Assembly (NCBI GenBank): GCA_947089095.1
Contig: CAMUJB010000007.1
Coordinates: 43,787-107,786 of the forward strand
Direction of reading: 5' to 3'
DNA: 64,000 bases
DNA from: an uncultured Clostridia bacterium
Lineage (GTDB): Bacteria; Bacillota; Clostridia; Lachnospirales; Lachnospiraceae
Of the stretch, positions 7,387-49,553 are shown piece by piece. Each line of letters opens with the position of its first letter. The first letter of the stretch is position 1. The position numbers were made by a program, and so were the translations under genes. The notes below the pieces were generated by a model, which was given only the letters and a program-made list of their open reading frames with translations, ran no database searches and was not told the origin of the DNA.

Positions 7387-8424
7387 ATGGCTGTTACAAT
7401 CCGAGATGTTGCTGCATTAGCAGGCGTATCTCCCTCCACTGTATCCAGAACCTGCAAAGATCACTCTTCGATCAGCAGAGAAACAAAAGAAAAAGTCCGA
7501 TTTGCGATGGCACAATTAGGATACGAACCTAATATTTCCGCCAATTCACAAACCGGACAATCTCCCCAGACAATCAGTATTATTCTTCCTCCTTCCTCCA
7601 GAGAAGTCTATGAAAATTCTTTCTACTTAGAGGCAATCCGAGGAATCAGCCAATTCTGCAACGGAAGAGAATATATCAGTACCATTGTAACGGGACAAGA
7701 CGAAGAAGAAATCCTGCGTGCCATTCAAACACTAGGAAAAGATGAGCAAATGGGGGGCTATATTATCCTCTATTCCAAACAAGACGATGCCATTATTGAC
7801 TACCTCTATAATGAGGGTCTGCTCTATGTCTTAATTGGCAAAGCAAAGCAGTTTGTCAACCAAACCATCTATATCGATAATGACAACCTTCTAGCAGGAA
7901 AAGAAGCCACCGAATATCTATACAGCTTAGGTCACAGACGAATTGCCTATGTCGGAAGCGAATATAATATGCTCTTTTCTGCAGAACGCAAAGCCGGTTA
8001 TCAATTAGCACTCTCGGAGCATCAAATACCGATTTTCCCCGATTACTGCATCGAAGTAGAACAGCTTTCTCTGGATCAGAATCCACTCTTCCATGCCCTG
8101 CTGAAACGAGAAGATCGCCCTACTGCCGTTGTCGCAAGTGATGATATTTTAGCTGTTGCACTAAAGCGGATCTGTGTACAGTGCGGTTTGTCTGTCCCAG
8201 AGGATCTCTCTATCGTTTCCTTTAATAATTCCCTGTTTGCACGGATTACATCCCCTCAATTAACTTCTATTGATATTAATTCACACCAACTGGGAATTGA
8301 AGCAGCTTCACAGCTTATTAATCATATTGAAAACCCTAATTTACTGGCAACAAAGATTATTGTTCCACATTCTCTTATTATAAGAGGTAGCTGCCGCCAA
8401 ATAGAAGTAGAAGAAACCCTTTAA
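7387..8424 (+). CDS. LacI-family transcriptional regulator (MalR-like), divergent from PTS-mapP-malQ
   Basis: N-terminal HTH VTIRDVAALAGVSPSTVSR, periplasmic-binding-protein-like sugar-binding domain. RBS aaaggag 8 nt upstream. Confidence 0.85.
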   Translation: MAVTIRDVAALAGVSPSTVSRTCKDHSSISRETKEKVRFAMAQLGYEPNISANSQTGQSPQTISIILPPSSREVYENSFYLEAIRGISQFCNGREYISTIVTGQDEEEILRAIQTLGKDEQMGGYIILYSKQDDAIIDYLYNEGLLYVLIGKAKQFVNQTIYIDNDNLLAGKEATEYLYSLGHRRIAYVGSEYNMLFSAERKAGYQLALSEHQIPIFPDYCIEVEQLSLDQNPLFHALLKREDRPTAVVASDDILAVALKRICVQCGLSVPEDLSIVSFNNSLFARITSPQLTSIDINSHQLGIEAASQLINHIENPNLLATKIIVPHSLIIRGSCRQIEVEETL

Positions 8425-8470
8425 AATAGGACTGAACCGGACACCGGACACCGAACGCCGGACGCATGAA

Positions 8471-8598
8471 GCAGAGAGGGTTTCTTTGCTGGGGCCGTTT
8501 GCACTAAGGCTTCCTCGCAGCGGACACATAAGGCACGAAAAAACCGTGCCTAAGTGCCGGCGGGAAGCAATACCCCTGCAAAGAAACCCTCTCTGCTC
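8471..8598 (+). repeat. Fam-C hairpin repeat, copy a
   Basis: Core tggggccgtttgcactaaggcttcctcgcagcggacacataaggcacgaaaaaaccgtgcctaagtgccggcgggaagcaatacccctgca. Complementary outer arms gcagagagggtttctttgc / gcaaagaaaccctctctgc. Copies at 9337(-), 63161(+) and 63946(-). Confidence 0.75.
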
Positions 8599-8709
8599 CA
8601 TACTGTATATTCCTAAATTCAAGTGTTCAAATTCGTCCTTCTGCATTTTCCCTATTGGGAATACAAAATAAATTTCTATGCTTTCAGAATTGTAGTAAAA
8701 TGAAAGAAG

Positions 8710-8829
8710 GTCAAATCGGATATTCGCAATCCGCTTCGCTGCTTGCTCATAACCTCATCAAGGAAGTCCCAACCCACCGCTTTCGCCTTGGCGGCTTAGA
8801 AACGGGGGACTTCCTTGATGAGGTTAAAT
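8710..8829 (+). repeat. Fam-B hairpin repeat, standard form
   Basis: ggtcaaatcggatattcgcaatccgcttcgctgcttgctcataacctcatcaaggaagtccc...gggggacttccttgatgaggttaaat. Confidence 0.75.
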
Positions 8830-8857
8830 AATAAAACAAAAACGGAGAAAAGAAAAT

Positions 8858-9310
8858 ATGGAAAAGTACACATATATCACTTTAAGGCAAAAGCCACAGA
8901 TAAAAGATACAGCAGCCGAATGGTTCCACTGTAAATGGGGCGTTCCCAAAGAAGCTTATCTGGAATGTATGAACGCTTATCTTAACAACGAAACGGAATA
9001 TGGCTGGTATCTTTGCTTAGATGAGAAAAAAATAATAGGAGGTCTTGGTGTAATTGAAAATGACTTCCACAATAGAAAAGATCTTGTTCCTAATGTCTGT
9101 GCAGTCTATACAGAAAAAGACTACCGATGTAGGGGGATAGCCGGACACTTGCTTAATATGGTGGTAGAGGATTTGAAATCCAAGTCCATAACGCCTATCT
9201 ATTTACTTACTGATCATACCAGCTTCTATGAGAAATATGGCTGGGAATTCTTATATATGGTTCAAGGAGATGGAGAACCCCATATGTCAAGAATGTATAT
9301 TCACAAATAA
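8858..9310 (+). CDS. GNAT-family N-acetyltransferase (150 aa)
   Basis: Acetyl-CoA binding motif region RCRGIAGHLLNMVVEDLK. RBS aacggagaaaag upstream. Flanked by inverted Fam-C repeats. Confidence 0.8.
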   Translation: MEKYTYITLRQKPQIKDTAAEWFHCKWGVPKEAYLECMNAYLNNETEYGWYLCLDEKKIIGGLGVIENDFHNRKDLVPNVCAVYTEKDYRCRGIAGHLLNMVVEDLKSKSITPIYLLTDHTSFYEKYGWEFLYMVQGDGEPHMSRMYIHK

Positions 9311-9336
9311 TTTCTAGCTTTCCGGTCGGAATACAC

Positions 9337-9477
9337 AGCAGGCAGGAGAGAGGGAATCTTTGCAGGGGTATTGCTTCCCGCCGGCACTTAGGTGCTGTTC
9401 TTTAGCACCTTATGTGTCCGCTGCGAGGAAGCCTTAGTGCAAACGGCCCCAGCAAAGAATCCCTCTCTCCTGCCTGC
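9337..9477 (-). repeat. Fam-C hairpin repeat, copy b (inverted relative to copy a)
   Basis: Reverse complement of the Fam-C core, with its own complementary outer arms gcaggcaggagagaggg / ccctctctcctgcctgc. Confidence 0.75.
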
Positions 9478-9506
9478 GTCCTCCCCCCTCCTATTTATGT
9501 CCTTTC

Positions 9507-9974
9507 TCACACAATATCCTCCACCAAACAATCCATTACCCTTCGAAGCCCCTCCAGTCCCACTTCCACCTGGCATCCTATCTTCCCGGCACTAAAAAAA
9601 ATCGTCTCAAACTCCCGCACCGTACAATGCACAACAGTAGGAAAAACCTTCTTCATCCCAATAGGAGAACACCCTCCATGCACATATCCTGTAAGTGGCA
9701 AAAGCTCCTTTGCCTTTACCATCTCAATTGACTTTTCCCCTACTGCCGCAGCCGCTTTTTTTAAATTCAATTCCTGATCCACTGGAATGACAAACACATA
9801 ATTCTTTTTTGACTTTCCCACCGTAACCAGTGTCTTAAACACCCGCTTTGGATTCTGCCCCAGCAAAGCCGCTACCTCCACTCCACTAAGCGTCCCATCA
9901 CCTGTATAATAATAACTTTTATAATTCACCTTTTTTTGCTCCAATACCCGCATTACATTTGTCTTTTCTCCCAT
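9507..9974 (-). CDS. ybaK: Cys-tRNA(Pro)/Cys-tRNA(Cys) deacylase YbaK
   Basis: 155 aa; MRVLEQKKVNY..., GGCSPIG motif typical of YbaK/ProX editing domain. Confidence 0.8.
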   Translation of the reverse strand: MGEKTNVMRVLEQKKVNYKSYYYTGDGTLSGVEVAALLGQNPKRVFKTLVTVGKSKKNYVFVIPVDQELNLKKAAAAVGEKSIEMVKAKELLPLTGYVHGGCSPIGMKKVFPTVVHCTVREFETIFFSAGKIGCQVEVGLEGLRRVMDCLVEDIV

Positions 9975-11411: not shown

Positions 11412-11532
11412 AGTCAAATCGGATATTCGCAATCCGCTTTGCTACTTGCTCATAACCTCATCAAGGAAGTCCCAACCCACCGCTTTCGCCTTGGCGGCTT
11501 AGAAGCGGGGAACTTCCTTGATAAGGTTAAAA
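11412..11532 (+). repeat. Fam-B hairpin repeat, standard form; its terminal ggttaaaag supplies the TAA stop of the DUF445 gene
   Basis: Sequence identity to the other Fam-B copies. CDS 11527..12429 stop codon (rc of tta at 11527-11529) lies inside the element end. Confidence 0.75.
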
Positions 11533-21565: not shown

Positions 21566-21805
21566 AAAGGGGACGCCAGAGAGTATTAAAAGCACGCTGT
21601 TCCGCTCTCCAGAAAACAGAAACTCTAAGACTTCTGAATTTCAATGCATCCAACCGGACGGACCGGCACGCAATTCGCCTCTGCAGGAGGCTAAACACGT
21701 GCCTTTTTCGGGCACAAGTGCCCGAAAATCCTACAGAATCGACAGAAGTCTAAGAGTTTCTAGTTTTCCTCCGAAGTCACAGCGTACTTTTAATACTCTC
21801 TGGCT
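21566..21805 (-). repeat. Fam-A palindromic structured element, copy 2 (core variant B, reverse orientation)
   Basis: rc of core ggattttcgggcacttgtgcccgaaaaaggcacgtgtttagcctcctgcagaggcgaattgcgtgccggtccgtccgg. Termini ggggacgccagag...ctctggcta. Confidence 0.85.
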
Positions 21806-22120
21806 ATATAATTCCACAATTTACGTTTCTTTTCTTTCGCGGTTGTATGGTTCTTCAATTTGTGTTTTTTCTCCTTGGTGGTTGTATGATTCTGCAATTT
21901 ACGTTTCTTCCCCTTTATGGTTATATGACTCTGCAATTTATGTTTCTCCTTAGCGGTTGTATGATTCTGCAATTTACATTTCTTCTCTTTCATGGTTGTA
22001 TAATTCTGCAATTTATGTTTCTTCCCCTTTGTGATTATATGACTCTGCAATTTATATTTCTTCTTGGCGGTTGTATGATTCCGCAATTTACGTTTCTTTT
22101 TCTTTGCAGATGTATAATTT
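21806..22120. repeat. Tandem-repeat array 1 (about 9 units of alternating 39 and 36 bp; unit ggttgtatgattctgcaatttacgtttcttc...)
   Basis: Direct repeats read from the sequence. Starts at the ctctggc terminus of Fam-A copy 2. No interspersed unique spacers. Confidence 0.85.
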
Positions 22121-29220: not shown

Positions 29221-30984
29221 ATGAGAAAACATACGCTAGAAACCCGCTGGACACAGCAAATTACAGAAACAAATGCCTGGCAGGAATACCCTCGCCCTAC
29301 TATGGTTCGCTCCTCTTATATAAACCTAAATGGTTACTGGGATTATAAAATCAGCAGACGTCACACCTTTCCCTCCGCCTATAGCGGAAAAATCCTAGTT
29401 CCATTCTCTCCCGAATCCAAACTATCCGGTGTACAGCGTCAGTTAAAACCAAATGAATATCTCTGGTACCACAGAACCCTTACCCCTTTATCATTTTCCA
29501 AACAAGAACGCCTCTATCTGCACTTTGGTGCAGTAGACCAATCCTGCACCGTTTACCTCAACCGCCGGAAAGTCGGTTCCCATCAGGGAGGCTATCTTCC
29601 TTTTTCGATTGACATTACGGAAGCGATGCGGCACGCTTCACCCAAAAAGTCTCTAGACTTATTCGTATGTGTAACCGATCCCAGTGACACCTCCTATCAC
29701 AGCCGGGGCAAACAAAAGCTCCGCAACGGCGGAATGTTTTATACTGCACAAAGCGGAATCTGGCAGACCGTCTGGATGGAACTTGTACCGGAAAATTTTA
29801 TCCGCTATGTCAAATTCACTCCTGACTACGATAAAAAAGAAGTAAAAGTAAAGATTGCTACAGAAAAAACCTGTCCTGCTGTATTACATCTAAAATTAGA
29901 ATCCGGCGATCTCTCTTATTCTTTTACAAGCAACCAAAGCTTTCGGATTCCGATTCGGGAATTTCACGCATGGAGTCCAGAGCATCCCTATCTGTACCAA
30001 GTAAAAATCACTACAAAGACAGACTGTATCTCCAGTTACTTTGCCCTAAGAAAATGTGAAATTCAAACCGATTCAAACGGAATCCGAAAAATCTTTCTTA
30101 ATAATCGCCCCTATCCGCAGATTGGCATCCTCGATCAGGGATACTGGCCAGACGGACTCTATACCCCGCCCTGTGAAGAAGCGATTTTATTTGATCTTTT
30201 GGCAATAAAAAAATTGGGATTTAATATGATCCGCAAACATGTAAAAATCGAATCGGAACGCTGGTACTATCACTGTGATCGGCTTGGTATTCTAGTCTGG
30301 CAGGATATGGTAAATGGCGGCTCACGCTACCACCGCTGGTTTGTTACTTACTTTGCCACTCTCTTTAACTGCCTGAATATCCGAATATTTGATCGTCCTC
30401 ATGCTTTATTTTCACGCAGACAAAAAGAAAGCCGAACCGAATGGACCAAAGAAGTCGTATCCACTGTCCGCACCTTATATCCTCATCCCTGCATTGTATG
30501 CTGGGTTCCATTTAACGAAGGATGGGGACAGTTTCGTGCACTTTCAGCAGCAGAATTGATTCGCAGTCTAGACAAAGAGCGGCTGATCGATCACGCCAGC
30601 GGCTGGTTTGATCAGGGAGGCGGCGATATAAAAAGTATTCACTACTATTTCTTCTCCCTGATTCTAAAACCGGAACGGCGTGCACTCGCTCTGACCGAAT
30701 TCGGCGGCTACACTTGGCATGTAAAAAAACACAGCTATTCCTCCAAAAAATTTGGCTATCGAACTTTTTACAGCAAAAATTCCCTGTCAAAAGGCTATGC
30801 CAAATTATTAGAAGACCTGATTTTTCCTGCATTTCAAAACGGACTTTCCGCCTCCGTCTATACCCAGCTTTCCGATGTAGAAGAGGAACTAAACGGCATC
30901 TTTACCTATGACAGAAAAATTCTGAAATTAGACAAAAAAACGGTTACCGAATGGAACCAAAAAATAAAAAATCTAATCGAGTAG
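29221..30984 (+). CDS. Glycoside hydrolase family 2-like protein
   Basis: 587 aa. N-terminal sugar-binding-like region and TIM-barrel segment (WQDMVNGG). Family assignment from overall similarity only. The last codons ATC GAG TAG lie inside a Fam-D repeat. Confidence 0.55.
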   Translation: MRKHTLETRWTQQITETNAWQEYPRPTMVRSSYINLNGYWDYKISRRHTFPSAYSGKILVPFSPESKLSGVQRQLKPNEYLWYHRTLTPLSFSKQERLYLHFGAVDQSCTVYLNRRKVGSHQGGYLPFSIDITEAMRHASPKKSLDLFVCVTDPSDTSYHSRGKQKLRNGGMFYTAQSGIWQTVWMELVPENFIRYVKFTPDYDKKEVKVKIATEKTCPAVLHLKLESGDLSYSFTSNQSFRIPIREFHAWSPEHPYLYQVKITTKTDCISSYFALRKCEIQTDSNGIRKIFLNNRPYPQIGILDQGYWPDGLYTPPCEEAILFDLLAIKKLGFNMIRKHVKIESERWYYHCDRLGILVWQDMVNGGSRYHRWFVTYFATLFNCLNIRIFDRPHALFSRRQKESRTEWTKEVVSTVRTLYPHPCIVCWVPFNEGWGQFRALSAAELIRSLDKERLIDHASGWFDQGGGDIKSIHYYFFSLILKPERRALALTEFGGYTWHVKKHSYSSKKFGYRTFYSKNSLSKGYAKLLEDLIFPAFQNGLSASVYTQLSDVEEELNGIFTYDRKILKLDKKTVTEWNQKIKNLIE

Positions 30985-31068
30985 GAAAGGTTACTTTCCC
31001 TACTCGCTGTCTCAGGCGTCCGTCAGCTCCGCTGACCTATTTCATTTAAACATTCATGTGCATAAAAA
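30975..31068 (+). repeat. Fam-D repeat, copy a (aatcgagtagg-hairpin-...gctgac...cataaaaa)
   Basis: Copies at 37750, 40424 (deletion form) and 49331. Contains hairpin gagtaggaaa..tttccctactc. Confidence 0.7.
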
Positions 31069-33162: not shown

Positions 33163-33428
33163 CAAGGGGACGCCAGAGTGCTTTAGGGAGACGTGTTCCG
33201 CTCTCCAGAAAGCAGAAGTTCTAAGACTTCTGAATTTCCGTGCATCCCGCCGGACGGACCGGCACGCAATTCGCCTCTGCAGGAGGCTAAACACGTGCCT
33301 TTTTCGGGCACAAGTGCCCGAAAATCCTACAGAATCGACAGAAGTCTAAGAACTTCTAGCTTTCCTCCGAAGTCACAACGTCTCCCTAAAGCACTCTGGC
33401 TGTATTGTCTCACAATTTACGTTTCCTT
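33163..33428 (-). repeat. Fam-A palindromic structured element, copy 4 (variant B, reverse)
   Basis: ggggacgccagagtg...rc core B...ctctggctgtattgtctcacaatttacgtttc. Confidence 0.85.
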
Positions 33429-33545
33429 TCTCGATCCTCTATGAATACAGGAATCAACTTTTATGTTTTCTTTTCTCGATCCTCTATGGATACAGGAATC
33501 AATTTCTATGTTTTCCTTTTTCGAACCTCCATGGATACAGGAATC
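33429..33545. repeat. Tandem-repeat array 2 (about 2.7 units of 45 bp; tcgatcctctatggatacaggaatcaatttctatgttttcctttt)
   Basis: Direct repeats lying between the head-to-head Fam-A copies 4 and 5. Confidence 0.8.
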
Positions 33546-33555
33546 AAATAAAAAC

Positions 33556-33833
33556 TTATCGGCAGGAAAAAACAGCCAGAGTGGGGAAAAGATTCCTTGC
33601 CACTGTGACTTCGGAGAAAAGTTAGAAAGTCTTATGCTTTTGTCGATCCACTAGGATTTTTTGCCATTCTCGAATGGCAAAAAAAGGGGTGTGTTTAGCC
33701 CGCTGTACGGGCGAATTGCACCCCGATCCGTCCGGCTGGATGTATCTACATTCAAAAGCATTAGACTTTCTTACTTTTTGGAGAGCGGAACAGTGGCAAG
33801 GAATCTTTTCCCCACTCTAGCGTCCCCCCGCCC
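33556..33833 (+). repeat. Fam-A palindromic structured element, copy 5 (variant A, forward)
   Basis: cttatcggcaggaaaaaacagccagag...core A...ctctagcgtccccccgccc. Confidence 0.85.
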
Positions 33834-37588: not shown

Positions 37589-37749
37589 AGCCGTCCCTTT
37601 CCCCGTCATACCAAACCTGCCATCCCTTCCGCCTGTCACAATGGAACCTCTACCCTCCTTCTACAATCAAACAAGAAAAATTTATCTTCCCCTGCTCATC
37701 TACCAAAATCTGTCAGCTTACTGAACGATTCCTTTGAACACCCATATAC

Positions 37750-37845
37750 CATCGAGTAGGAAAATTTCCTCTCCTTACTCGCTGCACCAAGCGTCCATCA
37801 GCTCCGCTAACATCATTCCCTTGGACGCCCGCATACATAAAAAAA
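37750..37845 (+). repeat. Fam-D repeat, copy b (inside the thi leader)
   Basis: atcgagtaggaaaatttcctctccttactcgctg...cagctccgctaac...gcatacataaaaaaa. Confidence 0.7.
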
Positions 37846-37980
37846 TGCAGACACGCAAAAAGCATATCTGCACCGTTCTTCCGCAAATGATGTCCCTACG
37901 TTGGCATTATCCAAATCAGGTTTTAAGGGTAAAAGCCTCACATGCTTACTCTCAGCCTATTCTAATAAGCTCCCCATATA
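37838..37980 (-). promoter_or_regulatory. TPP (THI-box) riboswitch with terminator-type expression platform, upstream of thiM-E-D-C
   Basis: Minus-strand aptamer GGGGAGC..GGCUGAGAG..ACCCUUAAAACCUGAUUUGGAUAAUGCCAACGUAGGGA matches the THI-element consensus. It is followed by the hairpin ugcagauaugcuuuuugcgugucugca + U7. Confidence 0.85.
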
Positions 37981-38019
37981 TTTCTATTATAACCTCTTTT
38001 TAAAAAAACACAATCCCCT

Positions 38020-38347
38020 TTTTCCAACAAAATCCTTTAACCCCTCCCAACACCATACCTCATTTGAACCTCTATTTTTTACTGAAATTATTCGAACCAA
38101 GTCCAATCAAATCCAACACCATACCTCATTTGAACTCCTATCTTTTACTGAAATTGGTCCAACCAAGTCCAATCAAATCCAACACCATACCTCATTTGAA
38201 CTCCTATCTTTTACTGAAATTGGTCCAACCAAGTCCAATCAAATCCAACACCATACCTCATTTGAACTCCTATCTTTTACTGAAATTGGTCCAACCAAGT
38301 CCAATCAAATCCAACATCGTACCTCATTTAAGCCTCTATCTTTTACT
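38020..38347. repeat. Tandem-repeat array 3 (about 4.7 units of 66 bp; caacaccatacctcatttgaactcctatcttttactgaaattggtccaaccaagtccaatcaaatc)
   Basis: Direct repeats abutting the 5' terminus of Fam-A copy 6. Confidence 0.85.
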
Positions 38348-38630
38348 CTATCGGCAGGATAAATCAGCCAGAACAAAGAAGCAATTTCTTGCTGACGTGA
38401 CTTCGGAGAAAAGTTAGAAAGTCTTACGCTTTTGTCGATCCACTAGGATTTTTTGCCATTCCCGAATGGCAAAAAAAGGGGTGTGTTTAGCCCGCTGCAC
38501 GGGCGAATTGCACCCCGGTCCGTCCGGCTGGATGCATCAAAATTCAAAAGCGTTAGACTTTCTTACTTTTCGGAGAGCGGAACGTCAGCAAGAAATTGCT
38601 TCTTTGTTCTAGCGTCCCCCACCCCCCATC
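38348..38630 (+). repeat. Fam-A palindromic structured element, copy 6 (variant A, forward)
   Basis: ctatcggcaggataaatcagccagaac...core A...ttctagcgtcccccacccccc. Confidence 0.85.
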
Positions 38631-48897: not shown

Positions 48898-49170
48898 AGT
48901 GGGGGGAGGACGCCAGAGTATGGCATTGCAGTACTGTTTCGCTCTACAGAAAGTAAGAAGCTCTAAGACTTCTGAATTTAGATGTATCCAACCGGACGGA
49001 CCGGGGTGCAATTCGCCCGTGCTGCGGGCTAAACACACCCCTTTTTTTGCCATTCAAGAATGGCAAAAAATCCTAATGAATCGACAGAAGTCTAAAAGCT
49101 TCTAACTTTCCTCCGAAGTCACAGTACTGCAATGCCATACTCTGGCTGTCTTTTTCCACAATATAGGTAT
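48898..49170 (-). repeat. Fam-A palindromic structured element, copy 8 (variant A, reverse)
   Basis: ggggggaggacgccagag...rc core A (P1 gccattcttgaatggc)...ctctggctgtctttttccacaatataggtattc. Confidence 0.85.
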
Positions 49171-49240: not shown

Positions 49241-49330
49241 ACTTAATAAAATAAAAGGCAGTTATCTTATCTTTTGATAACTGCCCAAACTAATGGTGAA
49301 TAAAATTTGTTATATTCTTTCTATTTTTAT

Positions 49331-49437
49331 AATCGAGTAGGGAAGGCTGCCTCCTCTACTCGCCGTGCTAAATGTCTGTCAGTTCTGCTGACATCGTTCC
49401 TTGAGATATCTGTGTACATAAAAAAATTCCCTGTAAA
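49331..49437 (+). repeat. Fam-D repeat, copy d, immediately beside tRNA-Leu
   Basis: aatcgagtagggaaggctgcctcctctactcgccg...tctgctgacatcg...gtacataaaaaaa. Confidence 0.7.
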
Positions 49438-49470: not shown

Positions 49471-49553
49471 TGCCGCAGGCCGGACTTGAACCGGCACGAG
49501 GTCGCCCCCGCTAGATTTTGAGTCTAGTGCGTCTGCCATTCCGCCACTGCGGC
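49471..49553 (-). tRNA. tRNA-Leu (anticodon CAA), class II with long variable arm
   Basis: Manual cloverleaf: acceptor GCCGCAG/CUGCGGC, anticodon stem CUAGA/UCUAG, loop CUCAAAA, T-arm GCCGG-UUCAAGU-CCGGC, discriminator A. No encoded CCA. Confidence 0.9.

Follow-up and report, generated by a model that had tools for sequence, protein, structure and literature searches.

We analyzed a 64,000-nucleotide (nt) stretch of DNA, referred to here as the window, from an uncultured Clostridia bacterium of the family Lachnospiraceae (GenBank assembly GCA_947089095.1, contig CAMUJB010000007.1, positions 43,787 to 107,786 of the forward strand); positions below count from its first letter. A preliminary description of this DNA had noted a gene for a GNAT acetyltransferase between inverted copies of a hairpin repeat, Fam-C, and had proposed a mobilized cassette, possibly for resistance to an antibiotic or xenobiotic. 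We found that Fam-C is a 147-nt structured element with about 40 copies in one genome, a near-invariant core, and arms that differ between copies but stay complementary. The interpretation that we favor, with moderate confidence, is that Fam-C is an undescribed, high-copy, lineage-restricted structured repeat, that the GNAT gene merely lies inside one of its usual divergent doublets, and that the doublet is not a gene-moving device. The proposal of a mobilized resistance cassette was mostly not supported.

Fam-C is a rod-shaped hairpin with a conserved core and covarying arms

An inverted-repeat search and Pfam confirmed the 150-amino-acid (aa) GNAT open reading frame (ORF) between inverted Fam-C copies, with a copy of a second repeat, Fam-B, in between. 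The limits first given for the two Fam-C copies (8471 to 8598 and 9337 to 9477) were corrected to 8460-8606 and 9335-9481. They belong to a 154-nt inverted repeat with arms at 8460-8613 and 9328-9481 that are 88% complementary, and each of the two arms is itself a hairpin, with a 29- to 31-bp outer stem around a 78-nt center. Fam-C copies fold with energies of -80 to -99 kcal/mol (z about -9 to -10 relative to shuffled sequences). A 26-mer from the core occurs three times in the window and in none of 100 shuffles; the end of the window truncates a fourth copy. The complete element is a 147-nt rod hairpin that starts with ACAG, ends with CGTCC, and is preceded by a conserved leader of about 20 nt, which on the folded strand reads GTTCCGGTTGGAATAnACAG as a consensus of the family. 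Both leaders of the GNAT-flanking copies are on the inner side of the block. Some copies elsewhere are preceded by tandem arrays of units of about 37 to 66 nt that repeat their own leader (L032, 5313-5805; L029, upstream of 233).

BLAST and a scan for the termini recovered all copies in the sequence examined, and 39 copies were aligned. The apical core of about 90 nt is near-invariant, with a mean pairwise identity of 93%, and the basal stem of about 20 bp differs in nearly every copy, with a mean arm identity of 50%. As the preliminary description had recognized, the outer arms differ and yet remain complementary: 95% of the outer-stem cells are paired, and 23 of the 29 pairs have changed on both sides. 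When all 53 pairs of the structure are taken together, 97.4% of cells pair, and both sides have changed in 33 of these pairs. None of 500 shuffles reached these values, and no slid control came near them. Stem cells with double changes numbered 354, against 2 changed on one side only. Beyond the variable arms conservation resumes, with GGACG on one side and CTGT plus a tail of about 20 nt on the other. In consensus, the element folds as one rod capped by a single terminal loop, and the length is fixed, every match to the tail motif in about 486 kilobases (kb) carrying the core at a fixed 153 nt. We rejected the insertion of the core into an older family of empty hairpins (GGACG, palindrome, CTGT), because there are no empty hairpins in those 486 kb. 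The arms as acquired, spacer-like sequence were also rejected, without a search, on the grounds that 50% arm identity reflects common descent.

In all copies, the core has changed several times more slowly than the flanks, an argument that constraint acts on each copy. One orthologous copy could be compared between sister species (L025 and L026). Its 29 outer pairs show five compensated changes and one single change; there is one change among the 36 unpaired core positions, and there are seven among the 41 flank positions. Independent change at the flank rate should, by our own estimate, yield about eight single changes and 0.3 compensated pairs. The arm changes are therefore coupled, either by strong selection or, more simply, by arm-to-arm templated DNA correction of the palindrome. 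L026 lacks the second member of this doublet; AAAAAC microhomology marks the boundaries, and a remnant of 16 nt persists. We considered an insertion with inverted target duplication to account for this difference and rejected it, since a deletion between the AAAAAC microhomologies is simpler.

Fam-C is restricted to one lineage

Among the roughly 185,000 species genomes of the GTDB collection, just two contain a 20-mer from the Fam-C core. The mouse-gut Lachnospiraceae metagenome-assembled genome (MAG) MGBC128194 has it in 34 stretches, with about 40 copies in all; the second genome, that of a close sister, has a single copy. In MGBC128194 the same GNAT locus is found on L048 at 99 to 100% identity, and the exact GNAT protein is encoded on conspecific metagenome contigs with the same neighbors. 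A diverged subfamily (77 to 80% core identity) occupies another site in a more distant sister species (L053). A two-part core pattern had no match in viral contigs and none in metagenome contigs of the Joint Genome Institute (JGI). The pseudo-ORF encoded by the core, used as a query, returned only three protein clusters. Plasmid and phage collections held nothing of the GNAT block except a Fam-B fragment. Neither Fam-C nor Fam-B matched an Rfam family at the gathering score or at E ≤ 10, apart from spurious microRNA-like hairpins.

Fam-C doublets share one orientation and mostly enclose no gene

We took a census of doublets among the copies in the reference MAG MGBC128194 and in the window. 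All 14 doublets share the same relative orientation, divergent on the folded strand, with core-to-core spacers of 144 to 780 nt, mostly 144 to 290 nt. Nine further copies are singletons, and 13 lie too near contig ends to classify. Eleven of the 14 doublets have no plausible gene between their members; the spacers are AT-rich and mutually unrelated, and three doublets contain a Fam-B copy. We concluded that the GNAT bracket exemplifies an arrangement common to the whole family, because all doublets share this orientation and most are without genes. Doublets are found between convergent, tandem, and divergent gene pairs alike, and a role of Fam-C as a 3'-untranslated-region element of converging genes was rejected for this reason.

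The folded strand and apparent kinship with TwoAYGGAY-type repeats

On the strand that runs from GGACG to CTGT, the mismatches in Fam-C stems are 33 A:C and 3 G:U. The opposite (ACAG...CGTCC) strand is therefore the wobble-tolerant one, and 29 of the 39 copies fold better on it. As a control of the method, Fam-A, a TwoAYGGAY-type repeat in the same genome, gave 75 G:U and 7 A:C on the strand that Rfam calls sense. We think it most likely that one strand of Fam-C folds and that it does so as RNA.

On their folded strands, Fam-A and Fam-C both start ...GGAATAnACAGC and end GCGTCC, so that ACAG(C)...(G)CGTCC and a GGAATAnACAG leader are common to the two families. A blind scan of the window for such termini (ACAG, a stem of at least 19 of 22 pairs, CGTCC) returned exactly three complete Fam-C copies (147 nt) and five Fam-A copies (236 to 254 nt), with none in 20 shuffles. 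In the sister species L053, the scan found a divergent doublet of 332-nt ACAG...CGTCC elements (8704-9460, 92 nt apart) in the intergenic region between lacI and the phosphotransferase system (PTS) genes. The same region is repeat-free in the window; thus, related species carry such elements at different intergenic sites. An Rfam gathering scan of the window placed the TwoAYGGAY family (RF01731) only at the Fam-A copy at 48942-49117, one of nine Fam-A copies. In 8400-9560, RF01731 gave no match even at E ≤ 10, and we found no A[CT]GGA[CT] motif on either strand of the Fam-C core by reading, no pattern search having been run. Since the core, so read, has no AYGGAY loops and the Rfam model does not recognize the element, Fam-C is not a member of RF01731. 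We take Fam-C instead to be related to the TwoAYGGAY-type repeats as a sibling within this genome: both have the same termini and leader, a long variable basal stem, the strand-specific wobble bias, and the doublets, and they differ in the apical module.

This kinship extends to what has been reported for TwoAYGGAY elsewhere (RF01731; PMC2864571; bioRxiv 10.64898/2026.09.22.753630). Both have tens of intergenic copies per genome (about 40 for Fam-C in one MAG), both have a long basal stem, reported for the Bacillota copies of TwoAYGGAY, and both form outward-facing doublets a few hundred base pairs apart, with repeat arrays near copies. In Pseudomonas, 68% of TwoAYGGAY doublets are divergent, with a median spacing of 249 bp and upstream repeat arrays; the authors termed these doublets "mobile-element-like" and left the matter without resolution (bioRxiv 10.64898/2026.09.22.753630). 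TwoAYGGAY differs in carrying two apical hairpins with AYGGAY loops on a common stem (236 to 254 nt here), whereas Fam-C is a single 147-nt rod with far fewer G:U pairs. The proposal that TwoAYGGAY acts as a Csr/Rsm sponge cannot be transferred to Fam-C, because the core has no AYGGAY loop motif by reading.

Fam-A itself forms divergent doublets in the window, at 21605-21775(-)/22293-22464(+) and at 33168-33403(-)/33572-33825(+). Their spacers hold tandem arrays (seven units of 39 nt at 21752-22096; three units of 45 nt at 33422-33556), and an array of five 66-nt units (37981-38376) lies just upstream of the Fam-A copy at 38402. These arrays recall the upstream repeat arrays reported for Pseudomonas TwoAYGGAY. 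A separate three-copy repeat (30974-31068, 37749-37843, and 49330-49424) consists of a short hairpin followed by CTGT...GCGTCC, the terminal motifs of Fam-A and Fam-C. One copy adjoins a thiamine pyrophosphate (TPP) riboswitch (37876-37986), and one is near a tRNA (49471-49553). This repeat may represent the framework of the two families in remnant or minimal form.

The GNAT gene is ordinary, and its block is lineage specific

The composition of the GNAT gene is ordinary. Its guanine-plus-cytosine (GC) content is 0.377, compared with 0.415 ± 0.030 for 48 ORFs of the window (z = -1.27), and the z scores are -0.12 for GC at third codon positions (GC3) and -1.0 for synonymous codon choice. The earlier impression that the gene is richer in AT than its neighbors is thus right to a slight degree, with a marginal difference in overall GC and next to none in GC3. 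The preliminary description had also called it a lone plus-strand gene, which overlooked the LacI-family gene to its left, likewise on the plus strand.

We found only generic Pfam GNAT families in the protein. No resistance equivalog (AAC(6'), streptothricin, or others) was matched, the best NCBIfam scores being 16 to 21 bits against cutoffs of 125 to 180 (top score, 21 against 125), and the suggestion of a resistance or xenobiotic acetyltransferase was not borne out. There was no defense-system match, and the nearest structure in the PDB is an unnamed, uncharacterized GNAT (E = 1e-17). More than 8,000 homologs were returned, the top 120 at 76 to 87% identity. Homologs with 70 to 83% nucleotide identity occur in four other genomic contexts (CstA...rpoB; TPR...GrpB-AddB; GDPD...integrase; a cluster of acetyltransferase genes). 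Around GNAT homologs elsewhere (L005-L013 and L056), we found no Fam-C, no Fam-B, and no flanking inverted repeat of any kind. P0002, a candidate for a near-identical GNAT, was rejected; it is a homolog of 70% identity with an internal duplication, within the acetyltransferase gene cluster. We conclude that the GNAT gene encodes an ordinary accessory acetyltransferase, with its own ribosome-binding site, of a generic kind that is widely conserved in Lachnospiraceae.

The backbone around the block (RluD-RecU-HisZ-DUF445-MATE-YbaK/LacI-PTS) is syntenic in sister species, in which YbaK is 75 to 81% identical. The YbaK/LacI junction consists of 64 nt with a bidirectional terminator hairpin in L053 and L054, holds a Dam-like methyltransferase gene and a 235-aa gene in L051 and L052, and holds a 5'-nucleotidase/LysM gene in L049, L050, and L057. 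We found no inverted repeats flanking these other inserts in the sister species. The GNAT block is missing from the junction in L049-L054 and L057-L059 and is present in all conspecific contigs. Because no sister lineage that was reached has it at the orthologous junction, where other cargo is found, the block is a lineage-specific insertion at a hot spot. The preliminary description had held that ordinary composition, together with the gene standing at this locus without the repeats in all relatives, would speak against a cassette. The composition is indeed ordinary; the relatives lack the gene itself at this locus.

Within the species the block is constant, except for the length of a 7-nt array and a patch upstream of GNAT. 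The patch, of about 100 nt (8610-8709), shows about 89% identity among conspecific contigs that are otherwise 99 to 100% identical, and it adjoins the site of the Fam-B insertion. Fam-B is an insertion polymorphism at this locus: the window, L001, L002, and L004 have it, and L003, L048, and L055 do not.

Organization of the locus

The features of the locus and of the second Fam-C doublet of the window are listed in Table 1. The neighbors of the GNAT block are lacI, ybaK, and MATE and PTS genes. The LacI-family gene is the left backbone gene, with 35 nt from its stop codon to Fam-C copy 1, and ybaK is the right one, its stop codon 25 nt from copy 2. Copy 1 reads ACAG...CGTCC on the minus strand, away from GNAT and toward the 3' end of lacI. 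The folded strand of copy 2 is codirectional with GNAT; the copy occupies the gap between the convergent GNAT and ybaK genes, and the 197 nt from stop codon to stop codon are taken up by its leader and the element itself. Any GNAT promoter would presumably have to fall in the spacer upstream of the gene, where a consensus scan found no promoter-like site on the plus strand.

The 7-nt array abuts and overlaps copy 1 at its CGTCC end and differs in length from strain to strain, with a 7-nt indel in L003 and a 14-nt gap in L048 and L055. Short GGAC-containing repeats akin to it also adjoin Fam-C copies in L024 and L043.

Fam-B at the GNAT locus has a perfect 21-bp stem (8750-8770 paired with 8806-8826), lies between the spacer and the GNAT ribosome-binding site, and is unrelated in sequence to Fam-C. 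The other Fam-B copies in the window are at 1750-1917, 11413-11531, 40196-40363, and 63853-63919. The left 45 nt or so (8704-8754) match human-fecal contigs labeled "Bacteriophage sp." (unannotated) at 88 to 98% identity, and Fam-B therefore reaches much further than Fam-C.

In the second doublet (63149-64000), copy 3 sits 181 nt upstream of a 202-aa minus-strand ORF (62358..62966). The doublet encloses an orphan ORF of 88 aa (63327..63593, minus strand), itself upstream of the 202-aa ORF, and the last of the Fam-B copies named above.

Table 1. Features of the GNAT locus and of the second Fam-C doublet in the window
Feature	Position	Strand	Basis
LacI-family regulator gene	7387..8424	+	ORF; Pfam LacI and Peripla_BP_3; syntenic in sister species
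Four 7-nt units (CCGGACA CCGGACA CCGAACG CCGGACG)	8437..8464	none	Sequence reading
Fam-C copy 1, 147-nt rod hairpin	8460..8606	-	Inverted-repeat search, alignment, folding, termini scan
Leader of Fam-C copy 1, conserved, about 20 nt	8607..8627	-	Copy alignment
Spacer upstream of GNAT	8628..8709	+	Comparison of conspecific contigs
Fam-B hairpin repeat	8710..8828	none	Inverted-repeat and repeat search
GNAT N-acetyltransferase gene, 150 aa	8858..9310	+	ORF; Pfam GNAT families
Leader of Fam-C copy 2	9315..9334	+	Sequence; begins about 5 nt past the GNAT stop codon
Fam-C copy 2	9335..9481	+	Inverted-repeat search, alignment, termini scan, folding
ybaK (Cys-tRNA(Pro) deacylase)	9507..9974	-	ORF; profile matches; synteny
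Fam-C copy 3, left member of second divergent doublet	63149..63295	-	Core 26-mer, termini scan
Fam-C copy 4, cut at window end, right member of second doublet	63950..64000	+	Repeat search

Evidence against the favored interpretation and alternatives to it

Several observations weigh against Fam-C as a structured RNA repeat within which the GNAT gene merely happens to lie. G:U pairs make up 1.6% of Fam-C stem cells compared with about 7% in Fam-A, a share that is low for RNA and that fits a maintained DNA palindrome. No conserved sigma-70 promoter was found upstream of the Fam-C leader, and the hairpin on the folded strand is not followed by a U-tract. A single small gene lies inside three of the 14 homotypic doublets and inside one Fam-C/Fam-A pair, which by a rough, back-of-envelope estimate seems to exceed what independent insertion would give. 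Besides GNAT, the enclosed genes are small orphans: an 86-aa Cys/Gly-rich ORF (L033, 1899-2780) and the 88-aa ORF of the second window doublet, both without Pfam matches, and, between the Fam-A and Fam-C copies (L014, 1205-2500), a 184-aa Cys-rich ORF that lies downstream of a 314-aa ORF and has no Pfam match. The arms of the two GNAT-flanking copies are 79% identical (98th percentile) against the family mean of 50%, and they could thus have originated jointly with the gene. Finally, we found no intermediate state (a doublet without GNAT or GNAT without a doublet), even by way of five further YbaK homologs, which led only to other contexts or to the same GNAT block.

The first alternative is that Fam-C acts as DNA, a palindrome like those of repetitive extragenic palindromes (REPs) and their hairpin-forming doublets (REPINs) or of miniature inverted-repeat transposable elements (MITEs), whose single-stranded or cruciform hairpin is read by a transposase or a nucleoid protein, with RNA irrelevant and GNAT just situated between two of these sites. 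We regard this as unlikely. The nearly pure Watson-Crick stems, with their dearth of one-sided changes, fit it, and the five compensated pairs among six changed ones in the L025/L026 copy suggest arm-to-arm templated correction. The absence of one doublet member from the sister species, at AAAAAC microhomology, is what palindrome deletion typically gives, and assemblies break in mid-hairpin. What speaks against it is that the mismatches are strand asymmetric, in the same sense as in the RNA-annotated sibling family, and that the unpaired core positions are strongly conserved across about 40 old copies. In addition, we identified no RAYT or IS200-type gene, although no genome-wide search was made.

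A composite mobile cassette, in which the Fam-C copies serve as long terminal inverted repeats and copy 1, GNAT, and copy 2 were inserted whole by a trans-acting enzyme, seems to us rather unlikely. One part of this proposal stood: the whole block is absent in sister species, at a junction that is a hot spot for foreign genes. The 88% complementary repeats around a cargo, the likeness of the two flanking arms, and the single small orphan genes in other doublets are in keeping with it too. The part that did not stand is Fam-C as the vehicle. All 14 doublets are built alike, and most are geneless, with unrelated spacers. In the remaining doublets, partner arms resemble each other no more than randomly paired arms do (p = 0.45), and the apical hairpins of the two GNAT-flanking copies themselves differ at several pairs. 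GNAT relatives elsewhere have no such flanks, and we found no second locus or genome with the same ends and cargo. We saw no target-site duplication; by sequence reading, the flanks ...CCGAACGCC (left) and TCCCCCCTCC (right) share no direct repeat. No transposase or recombinase gene adjoins the copies examined (no genome-wide search was made). Moreover, the outermost parts of the element are the variable ones, the opposite of terminal repeats bound by a transposase.

A broader form of this idea takes the outward-facing ACAG...CGTCC doublets of both Fam-C and the TwoAYGGAY-type repeats as the ends of an unrecognized insertion unit that captures or delivers single small genes. The cargo could then be GNAT, the 88-aa and 86-aa orphans, and the 184-aa orphan between Fam-C and Fam-A, and the empty doublets could be a cargo-less form. 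We consider this quite improbable.

A pair of insulators or terminators is highly improbable. Read from outside (GGACG to CTGT), the strong hairpin with a moderately U-rich CUGUnUAUU would stop transcription from lacI and ybaK and shield the DNA in between. In roughly half of the copies, genes that end by a copy do stop 11 to 58 nt away, reading into it in this orientation. The ancestral bidirectional terminator is gone, and we found no canonical terminator in 8300-9700 outside the Fam-C copies, the sole terminator-like match being inside copy 2. Against this, the wobble bias points to the other strand as the one that folds, about 40% of copies turn this side to the start of a gene rather than its end, and the tail is no true U-tract.

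An inverton, in which recombination between the inverted copies flips the GNAT segment as a phase switch, can be set aside almost entirely: 150-nt inverted repeats do surround segments of 140 to 800 nt that could carry promoters, but there is no adjacent invertase gene, the ribosome-binding site lies inside the segment, so that a flip would change little, and GNAT points the same way with respect to lacI and ybaK in the window and in five independent conspecific contigs covering both flanks (L001, L002, L003, L048, and L055), a small sample that makes this last point weak.

A possible mode of maintenance

With Fam-C as a structured repeat and not a gene-moving device, the observations may be joined as follows. 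The copies would be kept through sequence-specific recognition of the core. The arms would need only to pair and would be rematched fast, probably via arm-to-arm templated DNA correction. Elements would settle in intergenic DNA just past stop codons, often two of them facing outward from a short AT-rich spacer. At the GNAT locus, the ancestral 64-nt bidirectional ybaK/lacI terminator would have been replaced by copy 1, the spacer, GNAT, and copy 2, although we infer this order of events. The GNAT transcript would enter copy 2 on its folded strand and so acquire a 3' hairpin of about -99 kcal/mol, which would probably end or stabilize it. The ybaK and lacI transcripts would meet complementary versions of the Fam-C hairpins.

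Comparison with other repeat systems

Fam-C resembles the REPs, bacterial interspersed mosaic elements (BIMEs), and REPINs of Proteobacteria (PMC3116915), which are short intergenic palindromes past gene ends, in inverted doublets and high copy, with a conserved foot motif. Fam-C, too, has foot motifs and forms doublets; no REP-associated tyrosine transposase (RAYT) was identified, again without a genome-wide search. REPs, however, measure 20 to 40 nt, and REPIN partners lie tens of nucleotides apart and pair with each other, whereas Fam-C has 147 nt, an apical core conserved in sequence, partners 144 to 780 nt apart, and arm sequences that are not shared. With MITEs and composite transposons it has in common inverted repeats around a gene that is absent from relatives. 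It differs from these in that its terminal-most part is variable, no target-site duplication is visible, there is no common internal sequence, and the GNAT cargo was never found with Fam-C ends elsewhere. Integron attC sites are also imperfect hairpins that are conserved in structure and variable in sequence, with one functional strand, beside small genes that are promoterless or short. In contrast to Fam-C, which is inverted, scattered, and endowed with a conserved core, attC sites follow each gene in the same orientation and are arrayed by intI. We found no integrase and no cassette array at the GNAT locus.

Significance

As a resistance or xenobiotic cassette, the GNAT locus is ordinary. 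What is new is Fam-C, framework kin of TwoAYGGAY with a different core and with no Rfam family. It shows that, within a single Bacillota genome, the basal framework of the TwoAYGGAY type carries two or more distinct apical modules. Since Fam-C has the doublet habit without AYGGAY loops, doublet formation depends on the shared framework and not on the proposed Csr-binding loops. Arm divergence that is near neutral and almost fully compensated, beside a frozen core, constrains models of how such repeats are maintained.

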